Assembly: GCA_964397485.1 (NCBI GenBank)
Contig: CAYNHT010000002.1
Span: forward strand, 73,743 to 137,742
Source: an uncultured Muribaculaceae bacterium
Lineage (GTDB): Bacteria; Bacillota_I; Bacilli_A; RF39; UBA660
Length of the DNA stretch: 64,000 nt
Direction: 5' to 3'
Shown here: positions 9,441 to 47,947 of the stretch, piece after piece
How the letters are laid out: the number at the start of each line of letters is the position of its first letter
Position numbering within the stretch: the stretch's first letter is position 1
Notes under the pieces: generated by a model
What the model was told of the DNA's origin: nothing
Database searches by the model: none
What the model saw: the letters and a program-made list of their open reading frames with translations, nothing else
Program-made: the position numbers and the translations under genes

Positions 9441-9638
9441 TTAAATAAATCTTGATGTTATAAAAAAATCCGTAAAAAAGTTAACAACTAAATAAGACAA
9501 GCCTATACTAACTATTATATATAGTATGCGAGCTTGATGATACTTATTCTTTTTGAATAAATTATTTATATTTATGCTATCTAAAGCCCATATAGTTAAA
9601 GGAACAACAACGATATATAAAAGAGTTTTAATTTCCAT
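9441..9638 (-). CDS. DUF1146/YwzB-family small membrane protein
   Basis: two TM helices, WAL..IN..LFKKN...QAR motif; position upstream of spoIID. Confidence 0.8.
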   Translation of the reverse strand: MEIKTLLYIVVVPLTIWALDSININNLFKKNKYHQARILYIIVSIGLSYLVVNFFTDFFITSRFI

Positions 9639-10074
9639 TATTATTATAATTATTGATTTTATCGATCCTTAACTGATGTCTTTCAACATTGGAAAAAGGA
9701 GTTTTAATAAAAGCATCAATAATATCTTTCATCTTTATTAAACTCATACTACTGGAAATTGATATAACATTAGCACTATTATGCATTTTCGAAAGTTTTG
9801 CTTCTTTAACGCTATCAACTTTGGCACATCTTATATTTTTAACTTTATTTGCTGCTATACACATTCCAATTCCGGTTCCACATATTAAAATACCTAAATC
9901 AATTTCTCCATCATTAATTTTAGATCCAACAATAAATGCATAATCCGGATAGTCAACGGAATTATCATTATCAGTACCATAATTGATGACAATATGTCCT
10001 TTTTTTTCTAAATATTTTATTAGTTTTATTTTTTGTTTTATACCATGATGATCAGTTGCTATACCTATTTTCAT
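9628..10074 (-). CDS. rpiB: ribose-5-phosphate isomerase B (RpiB/LacA/LacB)
   Basis: IATDH, SVDYPDYA, ILICGTGIG..IAANKV, RH..RI; start at MKIGIA. Confidence 0.92.
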   Translation of the reverse strand: MKIGIATDHHGIKQKIKLIKYLEKKGHIVINYGTDNDNSVDYPDYAFIVGSKINDGEIDLGILICGTGIGMCIAANKVKNIRCAKVDSVKEAKLSKMHNSANVISISSSMSLIKMKDIIDAFIKTPFSNVERHQLRIDKINNYNNNGN

Positions 10075-10085
10075 TGTTTCACTTC

Positions 10086-11297
10086 CTACCATTTATATTT
10101 TTTGTATTTTTTCTTATAATTAATTCCTCTTAAAAACAAATATATTCTTCTTTTAATAGGCAAATCTTTTTTATAATATAAAGGATCAACAATTTTACCT
10201 TGTTTTATCAGTTTATTTATCTGTTTTTTTAGTGCATCACTTTCAACATATTTTCTTATTACAGATTTAGGAACAAAAGTCAAAAGCATTTTATCCTTTA
10301 TCAAGATTAGTGGCTTGTCTTCATCATATATCAAATCATCGACTAAACTCTTAACTAAATTATGCCCACAAGCTGCTAAATAATACCCACTTCTGGACTG
10401 ACGAGGATTAATTTCTAATACTTTATATTTTCCATCTCTACTATCATATTTCATATCAAATTCTGCAAATCCTTGATAGCCGATTGATTCCATAAAATCT
10501 TTTAATTTATAAACAATTTCTTCTTTATATCCATGTTCATCAAAACCATTAACTAAAACTGTACAATTACCTACTCCTGTATTAGTTTGTTCTTGTAGAC
10601 CGATTTGCGCAAATGTCATTATTTGAGCCTTTTTATTTTTGCTGCAATAAAACATTGAATCATATAAAGCCGAATCATCCCCAGGTATAAACTCTTGAAT
10701 AATCAAATTATCTACATAACCAGAATCCTCAATTGTTTTTACTGTTTGCAATAATTCATCTCTTGATTTTATTTTATAAACTTTACTTTTACCTGGAAAT
10801 TCGCACTTATAATACATAACACTGTTCCCGGGTTTTAAAATTAAAGGATACATAAATTCATCTGGTATTAACGGTCTTTCTGTACAAGAATATATAAATG
10901 TTTTCGGCATATCTAATCCACTGTTTGCAAACACAGTATAAAATTTATCTTTTATTAGTAAGTTATCTAACATTTCTAAATCCACATAGTTGAAAACAAA
11001 ATATTTACTCAAAAATTCCTTGTTTTCTATAATTAATCTCACATATGTGTCGTTTGTACCGATAAGTAATATTTTTTTGTTTTTATGTTGTAAAGTGAAC
11101 TCTTCTAATGTCTTTTTAAAAATATTATCATCCCATAAATTGGGTTCTATTTTTAAATTAATTATATTACTTAAAGAAGTAAATGCCATTGCTTGTTTAC
11201 CTATTAAATTAGCTTTTCTACCATATGCTTCATGATAACATCTAGCCATATAATAGGCATTTATATCTGTTCCAATTATTAAAACTTCAAAATCCAT
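10086..11297 (-). CDS. ATP-grasp carboxylate-amine ligase, D-aspartate ligase (Asl/YxbA) family
   Basis: GTDINAYYMARCYHEAYG N-terminus, YPLILKP, IIQEFIPGDD, FDMKYDSRDG..KVLEINPR. Confidence 0.82.
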   Translation of the reverse strand: MDFEVLIIGTDINAYYMARCYHEAYGRKANLIGKQAMAFTSLSNIINLKIEPNLWDDNIFKKTLEEFTLQHKNKKILLIGTNDTYVRLIIENKEFLSKYFVFNYVDLEMLDNLLIKDKFYTVFANSGLDMPKTFIYSCTERPLIPDEFMYPLILKPGNSVMYYKCEFPGKSKVYKIKSRDELLQTVKTIEDSGYVDNLIIQEFIPGDDSALYDSMFYCSKNKKAQIMTFAQIGLQEQTNTGVGNCTVLVNGFDEHGYKEEIVYKLKDFMESIGYQGFAEFDMKYDSRDGKYKVLEINPRQSRSGYYLAACGHNLVKSLVDDLIYDEDKPLILIKDKMLLTFVPKSVIRKYVESDALKKQINKLIKQGKIVDPLYYKKDLPIKRRIYLFLRGINYKKKYKKYKW

Positions 11298-11308
11298 CTT
11301 TTCACCTC

Positions 11309-12505
11309 TTATTTATATTCTTCTATATGAATAACTTTGTTATTTTTAACAAATACCCTAGGGACACTTTTTCCAATCATACACATTGTTTCATATACTG
11401 TTGTTTTTATATGTCTGCTTACTTCGCGGACAGAAATATCCTCGCCTATTAACATAACTTTATCATGAACTTTAACACTATCGTCAATTTTCACAATTAT
11501 CATTCCCATTCCTACTTCACCAATGATAGGAAATCGCTTTTTATTTATTAAAACTTCTCTTCCACTATTTCTCCTATTAAAACCATCGCCATAACCAATC
11601 GGTACTATTCCAACTTTCATTTTTTCTGTTGCTTTATAATAAGTTCCGTAACCTATATATTCTGACTGTTCTACTTTTTTTACTTGCATTATTTCACTAT
11701 ATAGTGAAAATGCAGGCTTTAAATTAATAGGACAATTTAAATTTGTGGGACTAATTTTATATTTTTTTATTCTCATTTTTGCCTTTAAAGCTCTTAGTTT
11801 TGCTTTTATTCCTGTTTGTGGCTTTGGTGTTTGATCAAATCCATACATAATTATTCCTAACCTAATCGCATTACATATATCTATTTTAGGGTGATTAATC
11901 AATGTGAGACTTTTTCCCATATGTACAATCGGAATTTGTTTTAAATCTATTTTTCTTGTTAATTTTTTAAATCTGCTAACCTGGTTATCCCATATTTTAT
12001 CACTTATACCAGGGGTCATAAAATGAGTATATATACCTTCTAATATAATATTTGGATGATTGGATAATTTTTCGTACGTATCTTTTATTTCATCCTCATC
12101 TTTTAATCCTAAACGATTCATACCAGAGTCTATTTTTAAATGGACTTTTAAATCGTGATTAATTTCAGTATCTAGTAGTTCTTTAAAGTATTCATAGTCA
12201 TGAACTGTAATCGTAATATTATTTTTTATACATACATCGATATAGTTTATATCAATTGGTTCTAGACACAAAATTGGAATATTATTATTCTTTTTTCTAA
12301 TACTAATAACTTCTTCTAATGTAGAAGCTGCTAAGTAGTTAATTCCACTATCAATTAAATCATTGACTATAAAATCATCATGACCATATGCATTTCCTTT
12401 AACCACTCCAATATAATATTGGTAATTTTTATAGTGATTTACAATCTGTTCAACATTATTCTTTAAGTTGTCTATATTTATTTGTACATAGGTATTTCTA
12501 TACAT
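11309..12505 (-). CDS. alr: Alr-family PLP-dependent amino-acid racemase, atypical active-site motifs
   Basis: VVKGNAYGH (PLP Lys), KIDSGMNRLG, IGYG (catalytic Tyr), PIGYGDG; start at MYRNTY. Confidence 0.8.
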   Translation of the reverse strand: MYRNTYVQINIDNLKNNVEQIVNHYKNYQYYIGVVKGNAYGHDDFIVNDLIDSGINYLAASTLEEVISIRKKNNNIPILCLEPIDINYIDVCIKNNITITVHDYEYFKELLDTEINHDLKVHLKIDSGMNRLGLKDEDEIKDTYEKLSNHPNIILEGIYTHFMTPGISDKIWDNQVSRFKKLTRKIDLKQIPIVHMGKSLTLINHPKIDICNAIRLGIIMYGFDQTPKPQTGIKAKLRALKAKMRIKKYKISPTNLNCPINLKPAFSLYSEIMQVKKVEQSEYIGYGTYYKATEKMKVGIVPIGYGDGFNRRNSGREVLINKKRFPIIGEVGMGMIIVKIDDSVKVHDKVMLIGEDISVREVSRHIKTTVYETMCMIGKSVPRVFVKNNKVIHIEEYK

Positions 12506-12600
12506 AATTACAAATCCTCTCATTTTAGTCTATACATAATTTGATTATAACATTTTTACTAATGATTGTAAACTCAAATACATAGTCGTTTGCATTAAAA

Positions 12601-12627
12601 AACTTATAAGATTAAGCCTTATAAGTT
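12601..12627 (-). terminator. terminator after asnB
   Basis: AACTTATAAG/CTTATAAGTT stem with U-tract. Confidence 0.55.
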
Positions 12628-12629
12628 AA

Positions 12630-14468
12630 TTATTTTATATCTATAAAATATACTTTATACCACAACAAGAATGCATATATTGTCCAAATTTTGCGACCAT
12701 TATTTTTTTTGTTATTGTAGTGATCATCTAATAATTTCAATATTTGTTCTTGGTCAAAAAATTCTTTTACAAAATTTTTCTTAAATAGTTGATATATTTT
12801 TTTATAGTATTTTTCTTCTTTTATCCATTGATAAAACGGAACAGGGAATCCTATCTTAGGTCTTTTTGCCCATTCATCTGGCAACACTTTGTTAGCCGTT
12901 TTTCTTAATATATATTTTGTTGTATTATTACTTATTTTATATTTTGTTGGTATTTTAGATGCTAAATTCATTACTTCTTTATCAAGAAATGGTACTCTTA
13001 GTTCTAACGAATGTGCCATAGTCATTTTATCAGCCTTAAGTAGTATATCTTGCGGTAACCACAAATGCATATCTAAGTATTGCATTTTTGTAACATCATC
13101 TTTATCCTTAACTTTATCAAAATAAGGTTTTGTTATTTCTTTAATAGTCTTACTCTTTTGATAATCCGGTTTTAATATTTCTTCCGCTTCTTTTTCGTCA
13201 AAAATATAAGCCTGACCAATATAGTAATCTTCAACTTCTAATCCATTTTTAGTCAAAAAGTTTCTTCCATGAAATTTAGGTAAAAATTTTGCAACTCTCC
13301 CTACACTTCTACGTAGTGTCTTTGGAAGTTTAAGATACTTTTCTTCTAATGCTGTTGCTCCATATGATGTATATCCACCAAACAATTCATCAGCACCTTC
13401 ACCAGACAAAACAACTGTAACATGTTCTTTAGCTAATTTGGATAGAAAATAAAGAGGTACTGCTGATAAATTAGCATGTGGTTCATCTGAATGATATTGG
13501 ACATTAGAAATTTCTTTAAAGAATTCTGCTTTATCTATTGTTTTATTAATATTTTCTATTTTCAACATTTTTGATAAGGCTACCGCATCATCCACTTCAC
13601 TAAAACCTTTATTAGCAAAACCAACCGAGAATGTTTTGTTTGGCATTAAAGATCTTGTTATATAACTAGAATCTATACCACCTGATAAAAAAGATCCAAC
13701 TTTAACATCACTAATTTTATGATATTCTACTGACTCAGCAACACATTTTTCTATATCTTTCATGTATGTTTCAAAATCTTTTTCTTTAGAAGAAAAATCA
13801 ATCTCATAATATTTATTTATTTCTAGGTTATCATTCTTATATTTTAAATAGTGTCCAGGCTCTAATTTAAAAACATTTTTAAAGAAAGTCTCATTTAAAA
13901 CTGAGTATTGAAAAGTTAGATACGGTCTTAATGCTTCTTTATTTATTTCTTTAACAAAAGCTGGATTAGGTAAAAAACTTTTGATTTCTGATCCAAACAT
14001 AAGAGTTTTATTCATTTTAGCATAATAAAATGGTTTTATTCCAAAAGGATCTCGTGCCGCAAATAGTTCTTGCTTGTTTATATCCCATATCACAAACATA
14101 AACATTCCACGTAATTTATCAACTATTTTTTCGCCATACTCTTCGTATCCATGAAGAATGACTTCTGTATCTGTTTTTGTTTTAAAAATGTGCCCTTTTT
14201 TAATTAAATCTTTTTTTATACTCTCATAATTATAGATTTCCCCATTAAAAACCAAAACAAGATTTCCTTCTTCGTTATACATTGGTTGACTACCATTATC
14301 CGATAAGTCAATTATACTTAATCTTCTAAACCCTAAGGCTATTTTTTTATCTACATATTTCCCACTACTATCAGGACCTCGATGTATAATTTTATTTAAC
14401 ATAGCATCAATAATTTTTTCTTTTTGTTTTGGGCTTTTGCTATTTAAAAATCCCGCTATTCCACACAT
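12630..14468 (-). CDS. asnB: asparagine synthase (glutamine-hydrolysing) / AsnH-type amidotransferase
   Basis: N-terminal MCGIAG, HRGPD, FNGEIYN, LSGGIDSS, LSGEGADELFGGY, ELRVPFLD. Confidence 0.93.
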   Translation of the reverse strand: MCGIAGFLNSKSPKQKEKIIDAMLNKIIHRGPDSSGKYVDKKIALGFRRLSIIDLSDNGSQPMYNEEGNLVLVFNGEIYNYESIKKDLIKKGHIFKTKTDTEVILHGYEEYGEKIVDKLRGMFMFVIWDINKQELFAARDPFGIKPFYYAKMNKTLMFGSEIKSFLPNPAFVKEINKEALRPYLTFQYSVLNETFFKNVFKLEPGHYLKYKNDNLEINKYYEIDFSSKEKDFETYMKDIEKCVAESVEYHKISDVKVGSFLSGGIDSSYITRSLMPNKTFSVGFANKGFSEVDDAVALSKMLKIENINKTIDKAEFFKEISNVQYHSDEPHANLSAVPLYFLSKLAKEHVTVVLSGEGADELFGGYTSYGATALEEKYLKLPKTLRRSVGRVAKFLPKFHGRNFLTKNGLEVEDYYIGQAYIFDEKEAEEILKPDYQKSKTIKEITKPYFDKVKDKDDVTKMQYLDMHLWLPQDILLKADKMTMAHSLELRVPFLDKEVMNLASKIPTKYKISNNTTKYILRKTANKVLPDEWAKRPKIGFPVPFYQWIKEEKYYKKIYQLFKKNFVKEFFDQEQILKLLDDHYNNKKNNGRKIWTIYAFLLWYKVYFIDIK

Positions 14469-14482
14469 AATCTTCCTCAATT

Positions 14483-16099
14483 CTATATATCTAAATTATC
14501 AAATTTCACTATTCTATTATTATTAACTGTTATCTTAACACTATCCCCAACTTTAGTAACATTCAATTCTTTACTAATAGTTGATGAAGCATAATATAAT
14601 TTTTTATCTTCCTTAATGATTATATAGTAATTAGTTTCTCCACCGCTTATGTCAAAACCAATTCTTTCGATTGTTCCTTCTATTTCTATATTATTTGTGT
14701 CATTAGGAACAGATTCTTTATCAAGAGCCTTTAAATATGAGTTTAAAGCACTATTTATCGTTTCACCATTACCTACAATTGAAAAATCTGTAATATTCAC
14801 AAATGCATATTGTTTTATTAATCCACTACTATCTTTCAAAGTTATAAAGAATGTCGGCTCATCGTATACATTTATCGTCACTGGAAAAGTAGCTTTGTAT
14901 CCAAAATTTTCAACTTTTCCTTGGGCTGACCTCATAGCAGAATATTCTGTTGCTCCTGTCATTTTGTAAAATGTTGTCTCCTTTGTCTTCGTATTTATAA
15001 AGACAAATCCAACAGTTGATTCATCAGCGCCACTACTAGTTAAGCCTGTATAGTGATATAAATTATTTTCATTATATACTCTTCTTGAACCATTTGTAGT
15101 ACGTACAATATCTTTTTCACCAAAAATAGTATTTAAATAACCATTTACATAATATCCCCAGTCATCTATTTGTTTTAAAACAATTTCCTTTGGATATATT
15201 GTATCTATCCATTCTGGAGCATCAGATGGTTTGTACTCTTTTACCTCACCTGTTTGCGCGTCTACCACCACCACACTTAAAATATCATCTCCACCATTGA
15301 TACCAATCGTTTTATGAGTTTTATTTATTATAAAATATGGTCTTCCTTCATCATCTAATTCAAATGTTGTTTTCACTAAAGCATTGTCCATGTTGCCATT
15401 ATAATAAGCATGGCGTTTTAAATTATTATTAAAGTAAGCAGATGATAAATATTTTAATTCTATTTTTTTATTGTTAATCTCTGTTACAAGTTCTACCTCA
15501 CCTGTTATTTTATCAACTTTAACATATCCGGGAGTACTTTTATTATTCATCCATTTGAAAAATCCATTAAATTCAAGTGGAGCTACCATGTACATTTTCC
15601 CTGCAACAACGATGTCACTAAATTCACCTACATGATATTCACTCCCAAGTCCACGCTCTGAACCTAATTTTTTATCACCTAATTTAGCTGCATAATCTGA
15701 ATCAACAATTGGTAATTCATTTTTTTCAACAATTGTAAATTCTGTTGTAAAATCTTTTTCATAAACTTCTCCTATTAATTGTTGATATTGCTTACTAAAA
15801 ATAAGCGGAGTAGAAGAAAATCCATGTATTAAAAGCACAGTAATTAGTCCACCAATTACATAAAAAACTTCTTTTTTAGGAATTTTAGTCTCAACTAATT
15901 CAGGACCTACTTTCATGTATTTTTTTTCAATTATGTTTTTATTAAAAGTAATATATACTAATCCTATTAAACTTATAAAAATGAAAAATACTTCAGTATA
16001 TCTCAAATTCAATGGTATTAACAGAAAATAATTTAGGATAGTTAGCGTTAACAATCCCCCTACAAACAAGCCTATTTTATTTAAAAAATCTTTCTTCAT
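14483..16099 (-). CDS. conserved hypothetical membrane protein (3 N-terminal TM, large extracellular domain)
   Basis: three hydrophobic segments, then beta-rich region (APEWIDTIYP, YTGLTS.GADES, GATEYSAM.SAQG); ends 14 nt before asnB start. Confidence 0.8.
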   Translation of the reverse strand: MKKDFLNKIGLFVGGLLTLTILNYFLLIPLNLRYTEVFFIFISLIGLVYITFNKNIIEKKYMKVGPELVETKIPKKEVFYVIGGLITVLLIHGFSSTPLIFSKQYQQLIGEVYEKDFTTEFTIVEKNELPIVDSDYAAKLGDKKLGSERGLGSEYHVGEFSDIVVAGKMYMVAPLEFNGFFKWMNNKSTPGYVKVDKITGEVELVTEINNKKIELKYLSSAYFNNNLKRHAYYNGNMDNALVKTTFELDDEGRPYFIINKTHKTIGINGGDDILSVVVVDAQTGEVKEYKPSDAPEWIDTIYPKEIVLKQIDDWGYYVNGYLNTIFGEKDIVRTTNGSRRVYNENNLYHYTGLTSSGADESTVGFVFINTKTKETTFYKMTGATEYSAMRSAQGKVENFGYKATFPVTINVYDEPTFFITLKDSSGLIKQYAFVNITDFSIVGNGETINSALNSYLKALDKESVPNDTNNIEIEGTIERIGFDISGGETNYYIIIKEDKKLYYASSTISKELNVTKVGDSVKITVNNNRIVKFDNLDI

Positions 16100-16179
16100 T
16101 ATCATCACCTTGTTTAATTATATCAATTTTTTCGACATTTAGTCAATGAAGATAAGCAAACAAACAAAAAAGAAGAAAA

Positions 16180-16397: not shown

Positions 16398-16432
16398 TCT
16401 CTCCTTCCGCCATGACTAATTAAGTCATAGTA
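16398..16432 (-). promoter_or_regulatory. candidate L31 leader element
   Basis: ATGACT/AGTCAT hairpin followed by GGCGGAAGGAG into the RBS, resembling Bacillus rpmE leaders. Confidence 0.45.
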
Positions 16433-39780: not shown

Positions 39781-40702
39781 TTGCTTTTCTCCTTTTCACC
39801 AATAAGTTTTGGATAATTGTAAAGGTACTATTAAATATCCAATATAATCCTATTCCTGTTGGTAAACTGAAAGATGCAATTGAAATAAATACAATCATTA
39901 TGTTTGTCATCATCTTCATTTGTTTCTCTTGATCTTTACTCATTGATGCAACACTATTTAATTTAAATGAATAATAAGTAGCACCTATAACTAAAATTAT
40001 AAAAATAATGTAATAATAATTTCCATTAGAAATCGCTTTCATAGGATTAGTTCCTAATTGAAATAAACCTAAAAAGGTTTCTTCGAATAATACTGGAAGT
40101 CTATTTATTGCCTCGTAAAATGCAAAGAATAAAGGTATTTGAATAAATGAAAATAAGCAACCAGACATTGGATTTATATTATGCTTTTTATATATTTGTA
40201 GCATTTCTTGACTTTTTTGCATCATACTCTCTTGATCTTGTCGTCCTTTATATTTTTGCTCTAATTTATCTATTTCTGGGCGGGCTATTTTCATATTTTC
40301 AGATTGAACAGCTGTCTTTTTTGTTATTGGAATTGCTATTGTTCTTAATAATAATGTAACAATTATTATAGCTATTCCGTAACTATTAAAGAAATTTCCA
40401 ACCTTTACTATAAGCCATGCCAATGGTTTTACAAATACTGTTGTCCATATACCTTCATAACCACCATCACTTACTTTAAATTCGCTACATTGTGGTAATT
40501 TACTTATATCAATTTTGTTTTGCTCGTATATTTTTTTTATATCTTCAGATTCGGGGCGACATAATATGTTTTCTGTTAGATTTTGTCCTGTTTCTTTATT
40601 TTGTATTGCTTTTCCTTCATCATCTTTTAATATTTTTGTACAACCAGTTAATCCTAAAACTAAAACAAGAAGTACGAGTAGTTGTATTTTTCTCTTATTC
40701 AT
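39764..40702 (-). CDS. yidC: membrane protein insertase YidC/SpoIIIJ (lipoprotein)
   Basis: lipobox LTGC, YGIAII.VT, NPMSGC..IQIP, GLYWIF. Confidence 0.93.
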   Translation of the reverse strand: MNKRKIQLLVLLVLVLGLTGCTKILKDDEGKAIQNKETGQNLTENILCRPESEDIKKIYEQNKIDISKLPQCSEFKVSDGGYEGIWTTVFVKPLAWLIVKVGNFFNSYGIAIIIVTLLLRTIAIPITKKTAVQSENMKIARPEIDKLEQKYKGRQDQESMMQKSQEMLQIYKKHNINPMSGCLFSFIQIPLFFAFYEAINRLPVLFEETFLGLFQLGTNPMKAISNGNYYYIIFIILVIGATYYSFKLNSVASMSKDQEKQMKMMTNIMIVFISIASFSLPTGIGLYWIFNSTFTIIQNLLVKRRKANGRNS

Positions 40703-41039
40703 TTTGTTTCTCCTTTGTAATGTTTACTTTTTTTAATATATATAATAATTCAGTTTCCATATCTGTGAAACTTTTATCCAAAATACCCTTCCTTACCATT
40801 ATAATACAATTAAATCCATTTTGGTAGTTTTTTTTGTCAATTATATTTTTTAATTGCCTTTTTATTTTGTTTCTTAATACTGCTCCACCAATTTTTTTGC
40901 TAACTGAAAAACCAAAATGATAAATATCATCGTTATTTTTTTCTATATATATTATATAATCTTTATATTTATATGGTTTACAACTTTTTATTATTCTATT
41001 GTAATCAGTATTTTTTTTTATTATATTTATTTTTTTCAT
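40695..41039 (-). CDS. rnpA: ribonuclease P protein
   Basis: FGFSVSKKIGGAVLRNKIKR. Confidence 0.93.
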   Translation of the reverse strand: MKKINIIKKNTDYNRIIKSCKPYKYKDYIIYIEKNNDDIYHFGFSVSKKIGGAVLRNKIKRQLKNIIDKKNYQNGFNCIIMVRKGILDKSFTDMETELLYILKKVNITKEKQNE

Positions 41040-41061
41040 GTTCACACCCTTAATTCATAGT

Positions 41062-41085
41062 AAAAAACCACTGTAAAACAGTGGT
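41062..41085 (-). terminator. terminator after rpmH
   Basis: ACCACTGT/ACAGTGGT stem with U-tract. Confidence 0.65.
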
Positions 41086-41090
41086 GTATT

Positions 41091-41213
41091 TTAATGTGAT
41101 AATACTTTACGACCTTTACGACGTCTATTATTTATGATTTTAGTTTTCATTCTAGCAAAAAAACCTTGTTTTTTACTTTTTTTTCTAGTATTTGGTTGAT
41201 AAGTTCTTTTCAT
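41091..41213 (-). CDS. rpmH: 50S ribosomal protein L34, 40 aa (not in ORF track)
   Basis: translates to [40 protein letters not shown]; GGAGGT RBS; canonical position. Confidence 0.95.
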
Positions 41214-41289
41214 AAGATCACACCTCCTGAATATAAATTTGCCATTGCTCTAATCATTATATAGATAAAATATACTTTTGTCAAATGTT

Positions 41290-41510
41290 TTGTTATTATT
41301 TTTTTTCCACAGTATAAAATGACTTAATATTAAATATAAGAATCCTTTTTTCAACATAAATGTGGAAAAATTAATTTATTTTATTAACATTGTTTAAAAG
41401 TTTTCCACATTTGTGTGTATAAGTAGATGTTTCTTTTGTTTTTAATATATTTTATATTGTGGAAAATATATATTTGTGCGTTTTTTCTTGGCTTTTCCAC
41501 AAAAATAATG
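41290..41510. promoter_or_regulatory. oriC, DnaA-box cluster upstream of dnaA
   Basis: TTTTCCACA at 41303(+), 41361(-), 41401(+), 41458(-), 41493(+), plus degenerate boxes; gene-strand switch. Confidence 0.88.
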
Positions 41511-41550
41511 TAAAATATTAGTAGACATTAGTTAAGTGGGGTGTTTTTAT

Positions 41551-42903
41551 ATGGATATTAACAATATTTGGAATTTGTTTTTACTTAAAGTAAAAGAGAA
41601 TATATCACCTATGCTTTATGAAATATGGTTTATGGAAACAAAATTATTATCCCTCGAAGGTAATAAAGCAAAGGTTTTAGTTCCTATGCATGTGCATAAA
41701 AAGCATCTAAAAGAAAACTATAATGATTTTATTGAAGAAATATTCACAGATGTTACAGGTTCTAATTTTCAATTTGAATATTCTACCGAAGAAGAATTAC
41801 AAGCAAATATTGAAATCGAAGAAAAACAAGTAGGAGTTCCATTATCATTTAATTTTGAATCAAATTTAAACCCTAAGTACTTGTTTGAAAATTTTATTGT
41901 GGGTGAGAGTAATAAATTTGCGAAAACTACTTCTTTAGCGGTTGCTGAAAAACCTGGCTATATGTATAATCCATTATTTATATATGGAAATAGTGGTTTA
42001 GGCAAAACTCATTTAATGCATGCTATTGGTAATTATATAATTAAAAATAGTAATAAAAAAGTTCTGTATGTTACAAGTGAGCAATTTGTAAATGATTTTA
42101 TCGAATTGTATAGAAAAAATAAAGAAGGCAACAATTTCAATAGTGTAGAAAACTTTAAAAAGAAATATAGGGAAATAGATGTTCTAATGATTGACGATAT
42201 ACAATATCTTGAAATTGCCGCTAAAACACAACAAGAATTTTTTAATACTTTTAATGAATTACATACAAATAACAAACAAATAATAATTTCGTCTGATAGA
42301 TCACCTGATGATTTGAAACAACTAGAAGATAGGTTACGAACAAGATTTAATTGGGGTCTTACTATTGATATTTTGCCCCCTGATTTTAAATTAAGGATGG
42401 CAATTATTGATAAAAAAATTGAAGGTCATATTTTAGCTAGTTCTTTTCCTTCAGATGTTAAAGAATATATAGCTAGTAACTGCACAAGCGATATTAGAAA
42501 GTTAGAGGGGGCAATAACAAGAATATTTGCTTACGCAACAATGATGAGTGGATCTGATATTACTTTGGATTTAGCTGTAGAAGCTTTGAAAGATTATTTT
42601 GTGAAAAGTATAATAAGTAAAAATAAAATTGATCAAGTGCAACAATTAGTTGCTAATAATTACAATATAAGTGTAGAAGATTTAAAAAGTAAAAAGAGAG
42701 TTGCTAGCATTTCTGTTCCTAGACAAATAGCAATGTACATTTGCAGAATAGTTTTAGAAGAATCTTTACCTAAAATAGGAATGGAATTTGGTGGTAAAGA
42801 TCATACAACTGTAATGCACTCTGTTGATAAAATTAAAAAAGAAATAAAAAATAATAGTAGTTTAGAACTTGAAATCCAAAAAATAATTAATAATATAAAA
42901 TGA
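41551..42903 (+). CDS. dnaA: chromosomal replication initiator DnaA
   Basis: YNPLFIYGNSGLGKTHL, IDDIQ, RKLEGA, SLPKIG..FGGKDHTTV. Confidence 0.98.
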   Translation: MDINNIWNLFLLKVKENISPMLYEIWFMETKLLSLEGNKAKVLVPMHVHKKHLKENYNDFIEEIFTDVTGSNFQFEYSTEEELQANIEIEEKQVGVPLSFNFESNLNPKYLFENFIVGESNKFAKTTSLAVAEKPGYMYNPLFIYGNSGLGKTHLMHAIGNYIIKNSNKKVLYVTSEQFVNDFIELYRKNKEGNNFNSVENFKKKYREIDVLMIDDIQYLEIAAKTQQEFFNTFNELHTNNKQIIISSDRSPDDLKQLEDRLRTRFNWGLTIDILPPDFKLRMAIIDKKIEGHILASSFPSDVKEYIASNCTSDIRKLEGAITRIFAYATMMSGSDITLDLAVEALKDYFVKSIISKNKIDQVQQLVANNYNISVEDLKSKKRVASISVPRQIAMYICRIVLEESLPKIGMEFGGKDHTTVMHSVDKIKKEIKNNSSLELEIQKIINNIK

Positions 42904-43040
42904 TATATGTGGAAAAAAAAGAATTTATAAAATTTTTTCAACAATATAAAAAACAATAAATGCATTTATTTTTAATAAAAAGAAGAGTTTTCCACATAAT
43001 CCACACTAATAATAATAAATAATTATAAAAAAGATAATAA
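42904..43040. promoter_or_regulatory. oriC, downstream part with DnaA boxes, trio-like repeats and AT-rich unwinding region
   Basis: boxes 42908(-), 42988 TTTTCCACA, 42997 TAATCCACA, followed directly by CTAATAATAATAA. Confidence 0.82.
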
Positions 43041-43056
43041 TAATAGGAGGTATTTT

Positions 43057-44178
43057 ATGAAAATTATAATAAAACAAAATATACTAATGGAACATTTAAA
43101 TTATGTAATAAAAGGAATTTCTAATAAAAATTTAATTCCTATATTAAATTGTATAAAATTTGAATTAACTAATGATGGTCTTTATTTAATGAGTACTGAT
43201 AATGAAATAGCAATAAAAACATTTATTAGTTCTAATAAGATAGAACAGATAGAAAAATGTGGAAGCATAGTTGTATCAGGTAAATATATATACGATATTA
43301 TTAAAAAATTACCAAATGAACTAATTAATATGGAAGAAGTTGTCGATTCAAAATTATATATATATACTGATAGTTCTTCTTTTAATTTAAATTGTAATAA
43401 AGTAGAGGAGTTTCCTACTTTAGAATTAGAAGATAATAAAAATCCAATCATATTGAATAAAACTTCATTTAAAAATATGATAAATCAGACTATTTTTGCT
43501 ACATCTACTCAAGAATCAAGACCTGTACTTACTGGATTAAATATAAAAATAGAAAATGATATTCTAGAATGTACTGCCACTGATTCATATAGATTAGCTA
43601 AAAAGAACATTATAATAGATAGAAAATTGGAAGAAAGTGTTAATATAATAATACCAACCAAAAATATCAATGAAATTAATAAATTAATACTTGCTGATGA
43701 TAATAGTGTTGAATTACATATTTTTAATAACAAAGTAATATTCAAATTTGATAACATTATAATATTATCAAGATTAATAAATGGAACATATCCCGATACT
43801 TCAAAGTTAATACCAACTGATTTTATGTTAAGAGTAAAAATAAAACTAGATAGTTTCTACGATGCAATAGATAGAGCCTCATTACTTACTAATGAAGCTG
43901 ATAAAAATACAATTAAATTTGAAACAAATAAAAATCAAGTAAAAGTTTCTTCTAATATTCCTGAAATAGGAAATGTTGAAGAAACATTAATTGTTGAAAA
44001 AAATAATGAAGAAGAGATAAAAATAGCTTTTTCGTCAAAGTATATGCTAGATGCACTTAGATCTTTGCAGTGTGAAAATATTGAATTATTATTTAATGGT
44101 GATATAAAGCCAATAATTATTAAAAATTTGGATGATGATAGTGTTATTCAATTAATTTTACCAATTAGGACATATTAA
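43057..44178 (+). CDS. dnaN: DNA polymerase III beta clamp
   Basis: SRPVLTG, ATDSYRLA, SRLING.YPD, LILPIRTY. Confidence 0.96.
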   Translation: MKIIIKQNILMEHLNYVIKGISNKNLIPILNCIKFELTNDGLYLMSTDNEIAIKTFISSNKIEQIEKCGSIVVSGKYIYDIIKKLPNELINMEEVVDSKLYIYTDSSSFNLNCNKVEEFPTLELEDNKNPIILNKTSFKNMINQTIFATSTQESRPVLTGLNIKIENDILECTATDSYRLAKKNIIIDRKLEESVNIIIPTKNINEINKLILADDNSVELHIFNNKVIFKFDNIIILSRLINGTYPDTSKLIPTDFMLRVKIKLDSFYDAIDRASLLTNEADKNTIKFETNKNQVKVSSNIPEIGNVEETLIVEKNNEEEIKIAFSSKYMLDALRSLQCENIELLFNGDIKPIIIKNLDDDSVIQLILPIRTY

Positions 44179-44323
44179 GGAAGAATAATTTATAAATATT
44201 CTTCTTTTTTTTTACTTTTTTTTGTAAAAACAGACAAAAAATGATAAATTTTGACAAAAAAGAGGTGTATAAGAAAGGAAATTTGATATTTTTTTCGAAA
44301 AATATCTATAAGGAGGTGTGAAA

Positions 44324-44773
44324 ATGATAAATAATTATGAGATTAATAACTCTACATTAGCAATTATTCCTGTTGGCGACAAAGTTTCAAAAATAATTGA
44401 GGAAGAAAATAATTTTGTTATAAATAAAATTCCAACAGAAGTAGTTGATGATAGTTGTAAATTTTTTGGAAGTTCTTATTTAGGAAGATTTGAAGGAACA
44501 AAAAGTTTATTAGGTGTAAATTACAAATCTCCAATTATAATAGAGGAGACAAAAGAAATAATATTTTTTCCTACTAGCTCCCCAAGATTTAATAATTGCT
44601 TTTGGATTTCTTTAAACAACATTGAAAATTATTCAAAGAATGAACATAAAACCATAATTAGTTTTAAAAATGGTCAGCGTATTGAATTGAATATTTCATA
44701 TGGATCTTTAGAAAATCAAATTTTGAGAGCAACAAGACTTGAATCAATCTTAAGAAAAAGAAAATTATTATAA
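44324..44773 (+). CDS. comK: ComK-family competence transcription factor
   Basis: YEIN..TLAIIP, SKIIE, DSCKFFGSSY.GR..GT, K.PI, FFPT.SP....C.WIS follow the B. subtilis ComK pattern; AGGAGG RBS. Confidence 0.85.
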   Translation: MINNYEINNSTLAIIPVGDKVSKIIEEENNFVINKIPTEVVDDSCKFFGSSYLGRFEGTKSLLGVNYKSPIIIEETKEIIFFPTSSPRFNNCFWISLNNIENYSKNEHKTIISFKNGQRIELNISYGSLENQILRATRLESILRKRKLL

Positions 44774-44800
44774 AACAAGCCATTTCGGCTTGTTTTTTTA
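44772..44800. terminator. terminator after comK
   Basis: AAAACAAGCC-atttc-GGCTTGTTTT plus T-tract. Confidence 0.75.
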
Positions 44801-44904
44801 TTTTTTTACCTAAAAATGTGGTATAATAGTATATGTGTATAGGAGTACAACATAGATGTGTTTTTTTAATTCCAAGCATTAAAATAAAGAAAGAGGGCTA
44901 TATA

Positions 44905-47947
<3,043 letters not shown>

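Follow-up and report, generated by a model that had tools for sequence, protein, structure and literature searches.

An alanine racemase-fold paralogue beside an Asl-like ligase and asnB as a candidate D-aspartate source for a peptidoglycan cross-bridge in an uncultured RF39 bacterium

D-Aspartate (D-Asp) bridges are a classical peptidoglycan chemotype, and the only described bacterial source of their D-Asp is RacD, a racemase independent of pyridoxal 5'-phosphate (PLP). The closest described systems are those of Lactococcus lactis and Enterococcus faecium, in which RacD, the ligase AslA or Aslfm and the amidotransferase AsnH produce a Lys-D-Asp/D-isoAsn bridge; in L. lactis, racD and aslA lie in one operon and AsnH amidates the D-Asp after its ligation (PMC4155827). 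We analyzed a 64,000-nucleotide (nt) stretch of DNA (the window; coordinates are positions within it unless a locus or contig is named) from the genome of an uncultured Muribaculaceae bacterium of the RF39 lineage (genome G000; 1.32 Mb, 93.6% complete), where three consecutive genes of the minus strand encode an AsnB paralogue, an Alr-family racemase and an Asl-like ATP-grasp ligase. That these genes form a peptidoglycan cross-bridge cassette is well supported by their context, and we give about an even chance to the reading that the Alr-fold, PLP-dependent racemase has replaced RacD as the supplier of D-Asp for a pathway that builds a Lys-D-Asp/D-isoAsn bridge. The bridge pathway itself is known, and what would be new is the non-orthologous replacement of RacD by a retuned Alr.

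The cluster and the distribution of its racemase

The asnB paralogue lies in the open reading frame (ORF) at 12630-14480, with a likely ATG at 14468 that gives the start MCGIAG, and its product shows the features of class-II glutamine amidotransferases, an N-terminal Cys (MCGI start) and an Asn-synthase domain. Pfam and NCBIfam profiles matched both the Asn_synthase and the GATase parts (PF13537, PF13522 and PF00733; TIGR01536 with 546.8 bits against a cut-off of 267.1). The racemase gene (11309-12523, minus strand, likely ATG at 12505 behind AGAGGA) encodes 398 amino acids (aa) that match PF01168 (164.4 bits), PF00842 (121.3 bits) and the alanine racemase model TIGR00492 (293.8 bits against a cut-off of 168) and do not match PF01177, in such a way that the protein is not a member of the PLP-independent two-Cys RacD family; it belongs to a clade of Alr paralogues that bear an insert and Lys or Arg at position 203, called here the variant. 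Its stop codon lies 11 nt before the start of the ligase gene (10086-11297, minus strand), annotated as an Asl-like carboxylate-amine ligase and matched by PF02655 (23.8 bits against a cut-off of 23.2). A sequence-only reading of this DNA had already described asnB, an Alr-family gene and an Asl-type ligase as consecutive, with 11 nt between the last two, and both statements hold.

The likeness to RacD-AslA-AsnH lies in the combination of a racemase and an ATP-grasp ligase in one operon with an AsnB-family amidotransferase, in a setting of peptidoglycan genes, in the presence of a putatively Lys-type (non-DNPR) MurE, and in the order ligase-RacD-asnB of sister genomes. It differs in that the racemase here is a PLP-dependent Alr of fold type III, encoded upstream and not downstream of the ligase, and in that asnB lies in the cluster; the ligase is likened to Asl by synteny and automatic names. 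We infer the two substrates and the AsnB target as follows. The Alr-fold paralogue would convert an L-amino acid, most likely L-Asp, into its D-form, the Asl-like ligase would join D-Asp to the epsilon-amine of L-Lys on a peptidoglycan precursor, and the AsnB paralogue would then amidate the free alpha-carboxyl of the bridge D-Asp, as AsnH does, to give D-isoAsn. In this way the paralogue would take the place that the PLP-independent RacD occupies both in the classical system and among sister genomes, and D-Asp is the most economical choice for the amino acid of the cassette.

The distribution of both racemase families was studied in ligase-carrying genomes. The ligase was found in 8 of the 41 relatives searched, in 13 of a class-wide sample of 400 genomes (E <= 1e-20) and in all five genomes behind further contig loci. 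Among the 23 such genomes examined, the insert-type Alr was present in 13 (G000, G024, G023, G018, G137, G378, G268, G331 and G422-G426), none of which had a RacD-type gene, and a RacD-type gene was present in eight (G037, G053, G063, G068, G413, G338, G014 and G015), none of which had the insert-type Alr; two (G303 and G324) had neither. RacD-type and MurI-like genes were separated by Pfam profile coverage and length, with NCBIfam confirmation for MurI of G000 and for the RacD-type genes of G037, G413 and G338. Four RacD genomes had no Alr-family gene at all, and in the other four the best Alr match was canonical (their weaker PF01168 matches were not read). In 8 of the 13 genomes, and in locus L009 as well, the ligase gene is immediately preceded by the variant, and in 7 of the 8 RacD genomes a ligase is immediately followed by the RacD-type gene; the two adjoin in G037, G053, G063, G068 and G413 and are fused in G338, where a single 651-aa protein (L030:4980-6935) carries the Asl-like ligase in residues 1 to ~410 and a TIGR00035 RacD-type racemase in 412-638. 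A RacD-type gene in the same ligase-asnB cluster of relatives is what would be expected if the Alr paralogue does the job of RacD. Orthologues of the window asnB (47-63% identical) adjoin the ligase in 7 of the 13 variant genomes and in 3 of the 8 RacD genomes, and therefore a residue with a free carboxyl is expected in both.

An independent sample was obtained from 80 metagenome loci fetched with the racemase alignment. Full-insert racemases with Lys or Arg at 203 were found at eight loci, and in five of the seven with enough flank an Asl-like ligase starts 6-45 nt downstream. By contrast, no such ligase accompanied full-insert racemases with Ser or Asn at 203 (six loci, 0 of the 3 with enough flank) or those without insert (0 of 65, of which 38 have at least 1300 nt of downstream flank); at one ambiguous locus, L113, where 22 of the 31 insert positions could be aligned and residue 203 is Gly, there was no ligase either. 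The two Lys/Arg loci without ligase resemble CAG:508-like genomes, whose ligase sits elsewhere beside a MurE-like gene. The link to the Asl-like ligase is thus specific to the Lys/Arg-203 subclade, which answers the question, raised in the sequence-only reading, of whether the variant motifs co-occur with Asl, and the arrangement is not due to chance, since many genomes and metagenome contigs carry the same racemase-ligase pair.

The remaining D-amino acid genes of G000 were also inspected. A canonical second alr is present (L001:1093-2172; 359 aa, motifs HISNS and CMDM, TIGR00492), 43% identical to the variant, which is therefore not the sole alr there. The only PF01177 gene is MurI (TIGR00067), in such a way that neither a RacD-type racemase nor any second PF01177 gene was found in this 93.6% complete genome. 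The original proposal had called for both of these genome searches, and both came out in its favour. PLP-dependent aspartate racemases do exist in the serine-racemase family of animals and some bacteria; they share Asp racemization with PLP and have a different fold (type II). Such an enzyme was rejected as a source of D-Asp in G000, its single PALP-family protein being CysK-like. Production by transamination was rejected as well, PF01063 transaminases being found in none of the 13 genomes tested (sets of five and eight, G000 included). G000, the genome with the fullest gene set, would then have one racemase per D-amino acid, D-Glu being assigned to MurI and D-Ala to the canonical Alr, which leaves the variant as the sole unassigned candidate for D-Asp.

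The wall genes of G000 comprise MurC, MurD, MurF, a MurT/GatD-like pair (below NCBIfam cut-offs), a second MurF-like/Ddl-like pair and, in the window, murA, spoIID and an M23 peptidase. Two tandem MurE genes (contig C3; L018:1255-2637 and L019:1237-2613), 53% identical, carry the motifs DNPR and DDPH, and a non-DNPR motif such as DDPH is taken by us as the mark of a Lys-type enzyme. Together with spoIID and spoIIID in the window, the pair suggests two stem-peptide chemistries, for example of the vegetative wall and the spore cortex, for which Lysinibacillus is a precedent. AsnB-family genes number three in this 1.3-Mb genome, the window asnB being 29-33% identical to the other two. The second MurF-like gene (531 aa, below the murF cut-off) adjoins the long Ddl-like gene (396 aa) at C1:332693-334801 (L021), and in G007, G023, G137, G338 and G015 a pair of similar size was the only Ddl/MurF-type pair found.

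Residues, insert and origin of the racemase

Residues were numbered by alignment to the alanine racemase of Geobacillus stearothermophilus (1BD0/1SFT/1L6F). The window racemase retains Lys39, Tyr43, Lys129, Arg136, His166, Ser204, Arg219, Ile222, Tyr265 and Tyr354, and the columns of Lys39, Tyr265', Arg136, Lys129, His166, Arg219 and Ser204 are invariant in 21 members of the insert clade; the earlier statement that the catalytic Lys (Lys39) and Tyr (Tyr265) are kept is thus confirmed. Three motifs are changed, THFATAD to THFMTPG (Ala168, Ala170 and Asp171), HCANS to HMGKS (Ala202 and Asn203) and GRICMDQ to GEVGMGM (Arg309, Cys311, Asp313 and Gln314), in such a way that Gly, Glu, Lys and GMG stand where Alr enzymes conserve Asp171, Arg309', Asn203 and CMD at the entryway and phosphate side. 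A basic insert of about 31 residues (233-265) lies between the barrel and the C-terminal domain, and the AlphaFold (AF2) model (mean predicted local distance difference test score, pLDDT, 88.4) places a helix at 239-254 in it. In a Foldseek search with this model the top matches were all Alr (E 1e-37 to 3e-38, template-modelling score ~0.82-0.88). Compared with the G. stearothermophilus enzyme (1SFT/1BD0), the two-domain fold and the catalytic residues are kept at about 30% identity; the differences are Asn203 to Lys/Arg, Asp171 to Gly, the change of Arg309, the 31-residue basic helix at the domain junction and, in the window racemase, also Cys311 and Asp313 to Gly, along with its coupling to an ATP-grasp ligase instead of Ddl/MurF.

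The marks common to the family were scored in 119 close homologues and in the relatives from genomes. The constant ones are the insert, Lys or Arg at 203 (present in all eight commonest patterns, which make up 101 of the 119 homologue rows), Gly at 171 and the loss of Arg309, which is replaced by Glu, Asp or another residue across the insert clade. The Met and Pro of THFMTPG are private to the window racemase, and the change of Cys311 and Asp313 to Gly is not universal, SMDM being found in G018 and G023, CMDM in G268 and G378, and GMDM in L005. The sequence-only reading had built on the three motif changes, which are all present in the window protein, two of them not being family-wide, and it had overlooked the most constant mark of the clade, the basic insert.

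In the Staphylococcus aureus Alr, the side chain of Asn203 reaches the PLP phosphate OP3 through one water, the entryway has a conserved middle layer of Asp173, Arg290', Arg309 and Ile352, and Tyr354 is named as a gate that controls specificity (PMC3245724). Because these residues are so placed in that enzyme, the family-wide changes lie, by alignment, on the phosphate side of PLP and in the substrate entryway, and Lys/Arg-203 may have a role in specificity. An Alr scaffold retuned by few changes in pocket or entryway has precedents in the serine racemase VanT, the Oenococcus oeni-type lysine racemase, the histidine racemase of Leuconostoc mesenteroides (5ZL6) and BsrV, all of which turn up among the structural or sequence matches of the window racemase. 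To our knowledge none of them has been reported to prefer Asp, the literature searches having found none either, and we know of no basic insert in any of them. VanT differs in that it alters Tyr354, which is kept here, and the Bsr enzymes in that they are secreted with a signal peptide. The window racemase begins at the conserved core without leader or N-terminal extension, its ORF residue 8 (residue 2 from the likely start) aligning with G. stearothermophilus residue 5. No description of an Alr-fold (fold-type-III) aspartate racemase was found in the full-text literature, with most subscription journals outside its coverage, and the terms 'PLP-dependent' and 'alanine racemase' do not occur in a 2026 review of microbial D-Asp production (PMC13631041).

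The origin of the clade was studied by aligning 22 locus sequences with 131 representatives, which had been retrieved from among 1.84 billion cluster representatives. The insert is present in 42 aligned rows, position 203 being Lys or Arg in 32 of them and Ser, Asn, Asp or Cys in the other 10. A tree built without the insert columns, from these 42 rows and the best-scoring 48 of 111 insert-less rows, recovered a clade of all 42 insert rows plus five insert-less ones (Shimodaira-Hasegawa-like approximate likelihood ratio support 99), whose sister is a group of 10 canonical Alr sequences. Because this group includes the second alr of G000 itself, the insert clade is a paralogue born within the lineage's own alr. 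The racemase would then derive from a duplicated alr that gained a basic helical insert and a Lys or Arg by the PLP phosphate and lost the Asp171/Arg309 entryway pair.

The ligase and the identity of the D-amino acid

The AF2 model of the ligase (mean pLDDT 93.9) shows the ATP-grasp fold, and its Foldseek matches were L-amino-acid ligase, carbamoyl-phosphate synthetase, PylC and PurK (E about 1e-14). The closest solved folds, those of L-amino-acid ligases and PylC (3VOT and 4FFL), share only 14-15% identity with it and belong to a different pathway; according to its Protein Data Bank (PDB) entry title, PylC likewise joins the carboxyl of a D-amino acid to the epsilon-amine of lysine. A PDB sequence search with the ligase returned nothing useful, with no Asl-type structure found by sequence. 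The automatic name 'D-aspartate ligase' (Joint Genome Institute, JGI) is borne by 4 of 120 homologues among the matches listed, and it also appears in Atlas cluster names. A prediction of a racemase-ligase complex, run without controls, gave a score of 0.00 and counts neither for nor against.

In G015 a second, distant ATP-grasp gene (L045:2806-4664), whose product is 27% identical to the window ligase, is immediately followed by a RacD-type gene. Members of its family occur widely among Bacillaceae, Oceanobacillus included, under the names 'carboxylate--amine ligase' (NCBI) and 'D-aspartate ligase' (JGI). Relatives of this branch with 54-59% identity occur in Ornithinibacillus, Virgibacillus and Paucisalibacillus, and the window ligase is 24% identical to one such Bacillaceae relative (pairwise E 5e-21). 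Ornithinibacillus and Paucisalibacillus have Orn-D-Asp walls. No Enterococcus or Lactococcus protein was among the 120 matches listed for the distant ligase of G015.

A ligase tree of 26 rows separated a clade V (14 rows, support 98/97), all in variant-racemase genomes, from a clade R (11 rows, support 91/85), in genomes with RacD or with neither racemase. The ligases of clade V are 35-39% identical to the RacD-linked ones, and the two clades share the same conserved residue in 42 columns, with just six fixed differences. Because the tree splits only once, the complementarity of 13 against 8 genomes counts as one event.

Several findings weigh against D-Asp as the amino acid of the cassette. 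Some of them favour the best of the alternatives, in which the protein is an ordinary alanine racemase, its ligase neighbour reflects the general clustering of wall genes, and D-Asp is salvaged or comes from an unrecognized enzyme. The window protein scores as an alanine racemase, above the equivalog threshold; its closest solved structures are alanine racemases; it keeps, with the catalytic residues, Ile222 and Tyr354, which we take to line the alanine side-chain pocket; and the loss of Arg309, with Glu in its place, does not obviously create a preference for an acidic substrate. Two Alr genes per genome are common in bacteria. Moreover, 10 of the 13 variant genomes have no other full-length Alr-family gene (G018, G023, G378, G268, G331 and G422-G426; G331 has in addition a partial 310-aa Alr-family match, left unclassified), and seven of these (G023, G268, G331 and G423-G426) have Ddl, which suggests that alanine activity is retained. 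This last argument loses force because no Alr-family gene at all accompanies the Ddl and the 5-6 Mur-ligase matches of G338, G015 and G324, in such a way that the lineage can evidently get D-Ala by some other route and a sole Alr is no proof of a D-Ala role. Within the window's own family (f1), 17 of 24 sampled genomes, these three included, had no Alr-family match. An idea of two grades, with GMGM-type variants specialized and found only beside a canonical Alr and CMD-type ones bifunctional, was rejected, the MGM-type variants of G422-G425 being the only Alr-family gene there.

Against a purely alanine role also stand the restriction of the ligase link to the Lys/Arg-203 subclade, the replacement of conserved entryway residues across the family, and the fact that the variant never co-occurs with a RacD-type gene among the 21 ligase genomes that have one or the other. 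To these is added the situation in G018 and G378 (93-94% complete), where the variant, the ligase and asnB are kept and no Ddl, MurC-F-type ligase, PF01177 gene or DltD was found; PF08245 had no match in G378 and one weak match in G018, which resembles the MurT-like gene of G000 in score and profile range. Both have 5-6 matches of penicillin-binding protein (PBP) type and MraY homologues, and in G378 the cassette adjoins a PBP and MraY. Teichoic-acid D-alanylation was considered as a sink for D-Ala and rejected, DltD being found in none of six genomes. A racemase without a recognized D-Ala sink is hard to explain if it serves Ddl, and overall we hold the ordinary alanine racemase to be rather unlikely. 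As a separate observation, G018, G378, G303 and G014 (93-95% complete) have 2-6 matches of PBP-type transpeptidases and MraY homologues, but neither Ddl nor a MurC-F-type ligase, PF08245 giving at most one weak match.

Unlikely as well, and slightly more so, is that the same cassette handles a different D-amino acid, the clade V ligase and the variant having switched together, with D-Glu as the most plausible choice and D-Ser, D-Ala or a D-diamino acid less so. Some of the remaining points against D-Asp bear on this alternative. The ligase is called Asl from automatic names, the RacD synteny of its homologues and the distant Bacillaceae branch; the racemase swap is a single evolutionary event, and the ligase, whose variant-linked members form their own clade, may have changed substrate at the same split. 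Six variant genomes (G137, G378, G018, G023, G331 and G426) have neither a PF01177 gene, and hence no MurI or RacD, nor Dat, so that a source of D-Glu is needed and the variant might act on Glu. In G024 the asnB (L014:3222-4889) appears to have an internal deletion, since its matches cover just residues 5-116 and 363-616 of the window protein. Lys-D-Glu and Orn-D-Glu bridges exist in some Gram-positive cocci, and the Ser-203 sister subclade pairs with another family of ATP-grasp ligases, in such a way that the clade diversifies in partner and presumably in substrate. By contrast, the same asnB orthologue accompanies both ligase clades, the fixed differences between the clades are few compared with their shared conserved columns, a MurI-like gene provides D-Glu beside the variant in G000, G024, G268 and G422-G425, and neutral D-Ala or D-Ser would leave AsnB nothing to amidate. 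The option of D-Asn, left open by the sequence-only reading, is unlikely, since the aspartate ligase is reported to accept neither D-Asn nor D-isoAsn as a substrate (PMC4155827).

A role outside peptidoglycan, such as making or modifying a capsule, a small peptide or the side group of a glycopolymer, is very improbable: it draws on the lack of MurC-F-type ligases in G378 and G018, which makes the usual UDP-N-acetylmuramoyl-pentapeptide route impossible there, on the fact that gene clusters for natural products and exopolysaccharides, too, can contain ATP-grasp ligases and AsnB-like enzymes, and on NCBIfam matches to XrtA/PEP-CTERM and lasso-peptide amidotransferases (all below cut-offs), but the neighbours are wall genes throughout, namely those already cited in the window and in G378, MurE-like ligases beside the ligase in L050, G268 and G422-G424, VanY in G014, M23 peptidases in G015 and, in L006 and L009, a MurJ-like flippase encoded upstream of the racemase, and no carrier protein, nonribosomal peptide synthetase or glycosyltransferase was seen in the clusters read.

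For the supply of D-Asp by the Alr paralogue, a broader specificity is a possible variant, because 10 of the 13 genomes encode no full-length Alr besides the paralogue and 6 of the 13 lack PF01177; the racemase may retain some alanine activity or also act on Glu. The Alr-fold aspartate racemase proposed from the sequence alone has thus gained from the second alr, from the failure to find racD, from the link to Asl and from the swap in the slot of RacD, and it has lost in that its motif basis is partly private and the swap is a single event. If the proposal is true, an acidic amino acid is added to the substrates of the Alr fold, and a wall chemotype is concealed by the pipeline annotation 'alanine racemase' in a large group of uncultured gut Bacillota with small genomes. 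A residue code (Lys/Arg versus Asn at 203, plus the insert) could then predict racemases of D-Asp bridges, and Alr inhibitors such as cycloserine would also hit bridge synthesis.

Sister cassettes and the surroundings of the cluster

The three Ser/Asn-203 loci with enough flank (L052:3516-5746, L057:3087-5272 and L064:4989-7144) all have a PF14397 'sugar-transfer associated' ATP-grasp gene next to the racemase, and these sets are flanked by a MurJ/Polysacc_synt-like gene, in such a way that the PF14397-linked Alr paralogues form a second racemase-ligase cassette. Most of the insert-bearing Ser/Asn-203 paralogues also lack Tyr354. A tentative generalization, possible and clearly less probable than the D-Asp proposal for the window, is that the insert-bearing Alr clade consists of dedicated side-chain racemases, each subclade with its own D-amino acid and ATP-grasp ligase. 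The Lys/Arg-203 enzymes would be the first fold-type-III Asp (or acidic-amino-acid) racemases, feeding Asl-type ligases, the Ser-203 enzymes would feed PF14397 ligases near MurJ-like flippases, and in the most reduced relatives, those without MurC-F, Ddl and MurI, the cassette would tailor wall precursors not made by their own Mur pathway. A handle on unknown wall modifications is offered by this pairing of racemase subclades with distinct ATP-grasp ligases and by the retention of cassettes in genomes that lack Mur ligases.

In other loci a MurE-type Mur ligase of 504-506 aa with an EDPG motif lies beside or near the Asl-like ligase (L050:5007-9053, L046, L047 and L048), and the one near the ligase of G268 (L026) has 477 aa and the motif EDPR.

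Within the window (27% G+C), an AT-rich 10-bp hairpin (AACTTATAAG / CTTATAAGTT, with a 7-nt loop and then TTTT; 12597..12627, minus strand) stands directly 3' of the asnB stop codon; it was read by eye as terminator-like and was not reported by a terminator scan based on G+C. Between it and the racemase lies a promoter-like site (12544..12572, minus strand; TTTACA, 17 nt, TG-n-TATAAT) that matches 11 of 12 positions, with TG before the -10 element. The single promoter that had been proposed for racemase and ligase is thus present as a site, and on its own it is weak evidence, because such matches are no commoner in this AT-rich region than in shuffled sequences (50 found against 53.1 expected). 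On the other side, a gene for an rpiB-like sugar-phosphate isomerase (9628..10092, minus strand) shares 7 nt with the end of the ligase gene, with which it is probably co-transcribed; it was left out of the cassette because it was not seen in related clusters with the downstream side available.

A T-box specifier was sought as a regulatory clue to the amino acid, and this line was dropped, as no T-box was found upstream of the cassette in the window or, at the gathering threshold, in 14 related loci; the only T-box among these (L034) is on the opposite strand, ~3 kb off. Directly upstream of asnB, a 541-aa ORF (14483-16108, minus strand) has hydrophobic N-terminal segments; it had no Pfam or NCBIfam match and was not found in the related locus L004. 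Between this ORF and a GDSL-lipase gene there is a match to the L31-Firmicutes ribosomal-protein leader (16401-16430, minus strand; 37.7 bits against a gathering score of 33.3), and the same motif occurs in the related locus L014. The window also contains the replication origin (within 40695-47947), with rnpA, yidC, jag and mnmE on the minus strand at its left side and dnaA (41536-42903), dnaN, recF and gyrB on the plus strand to its right, the sign of the GC skew flipping at ~41-42 kb.

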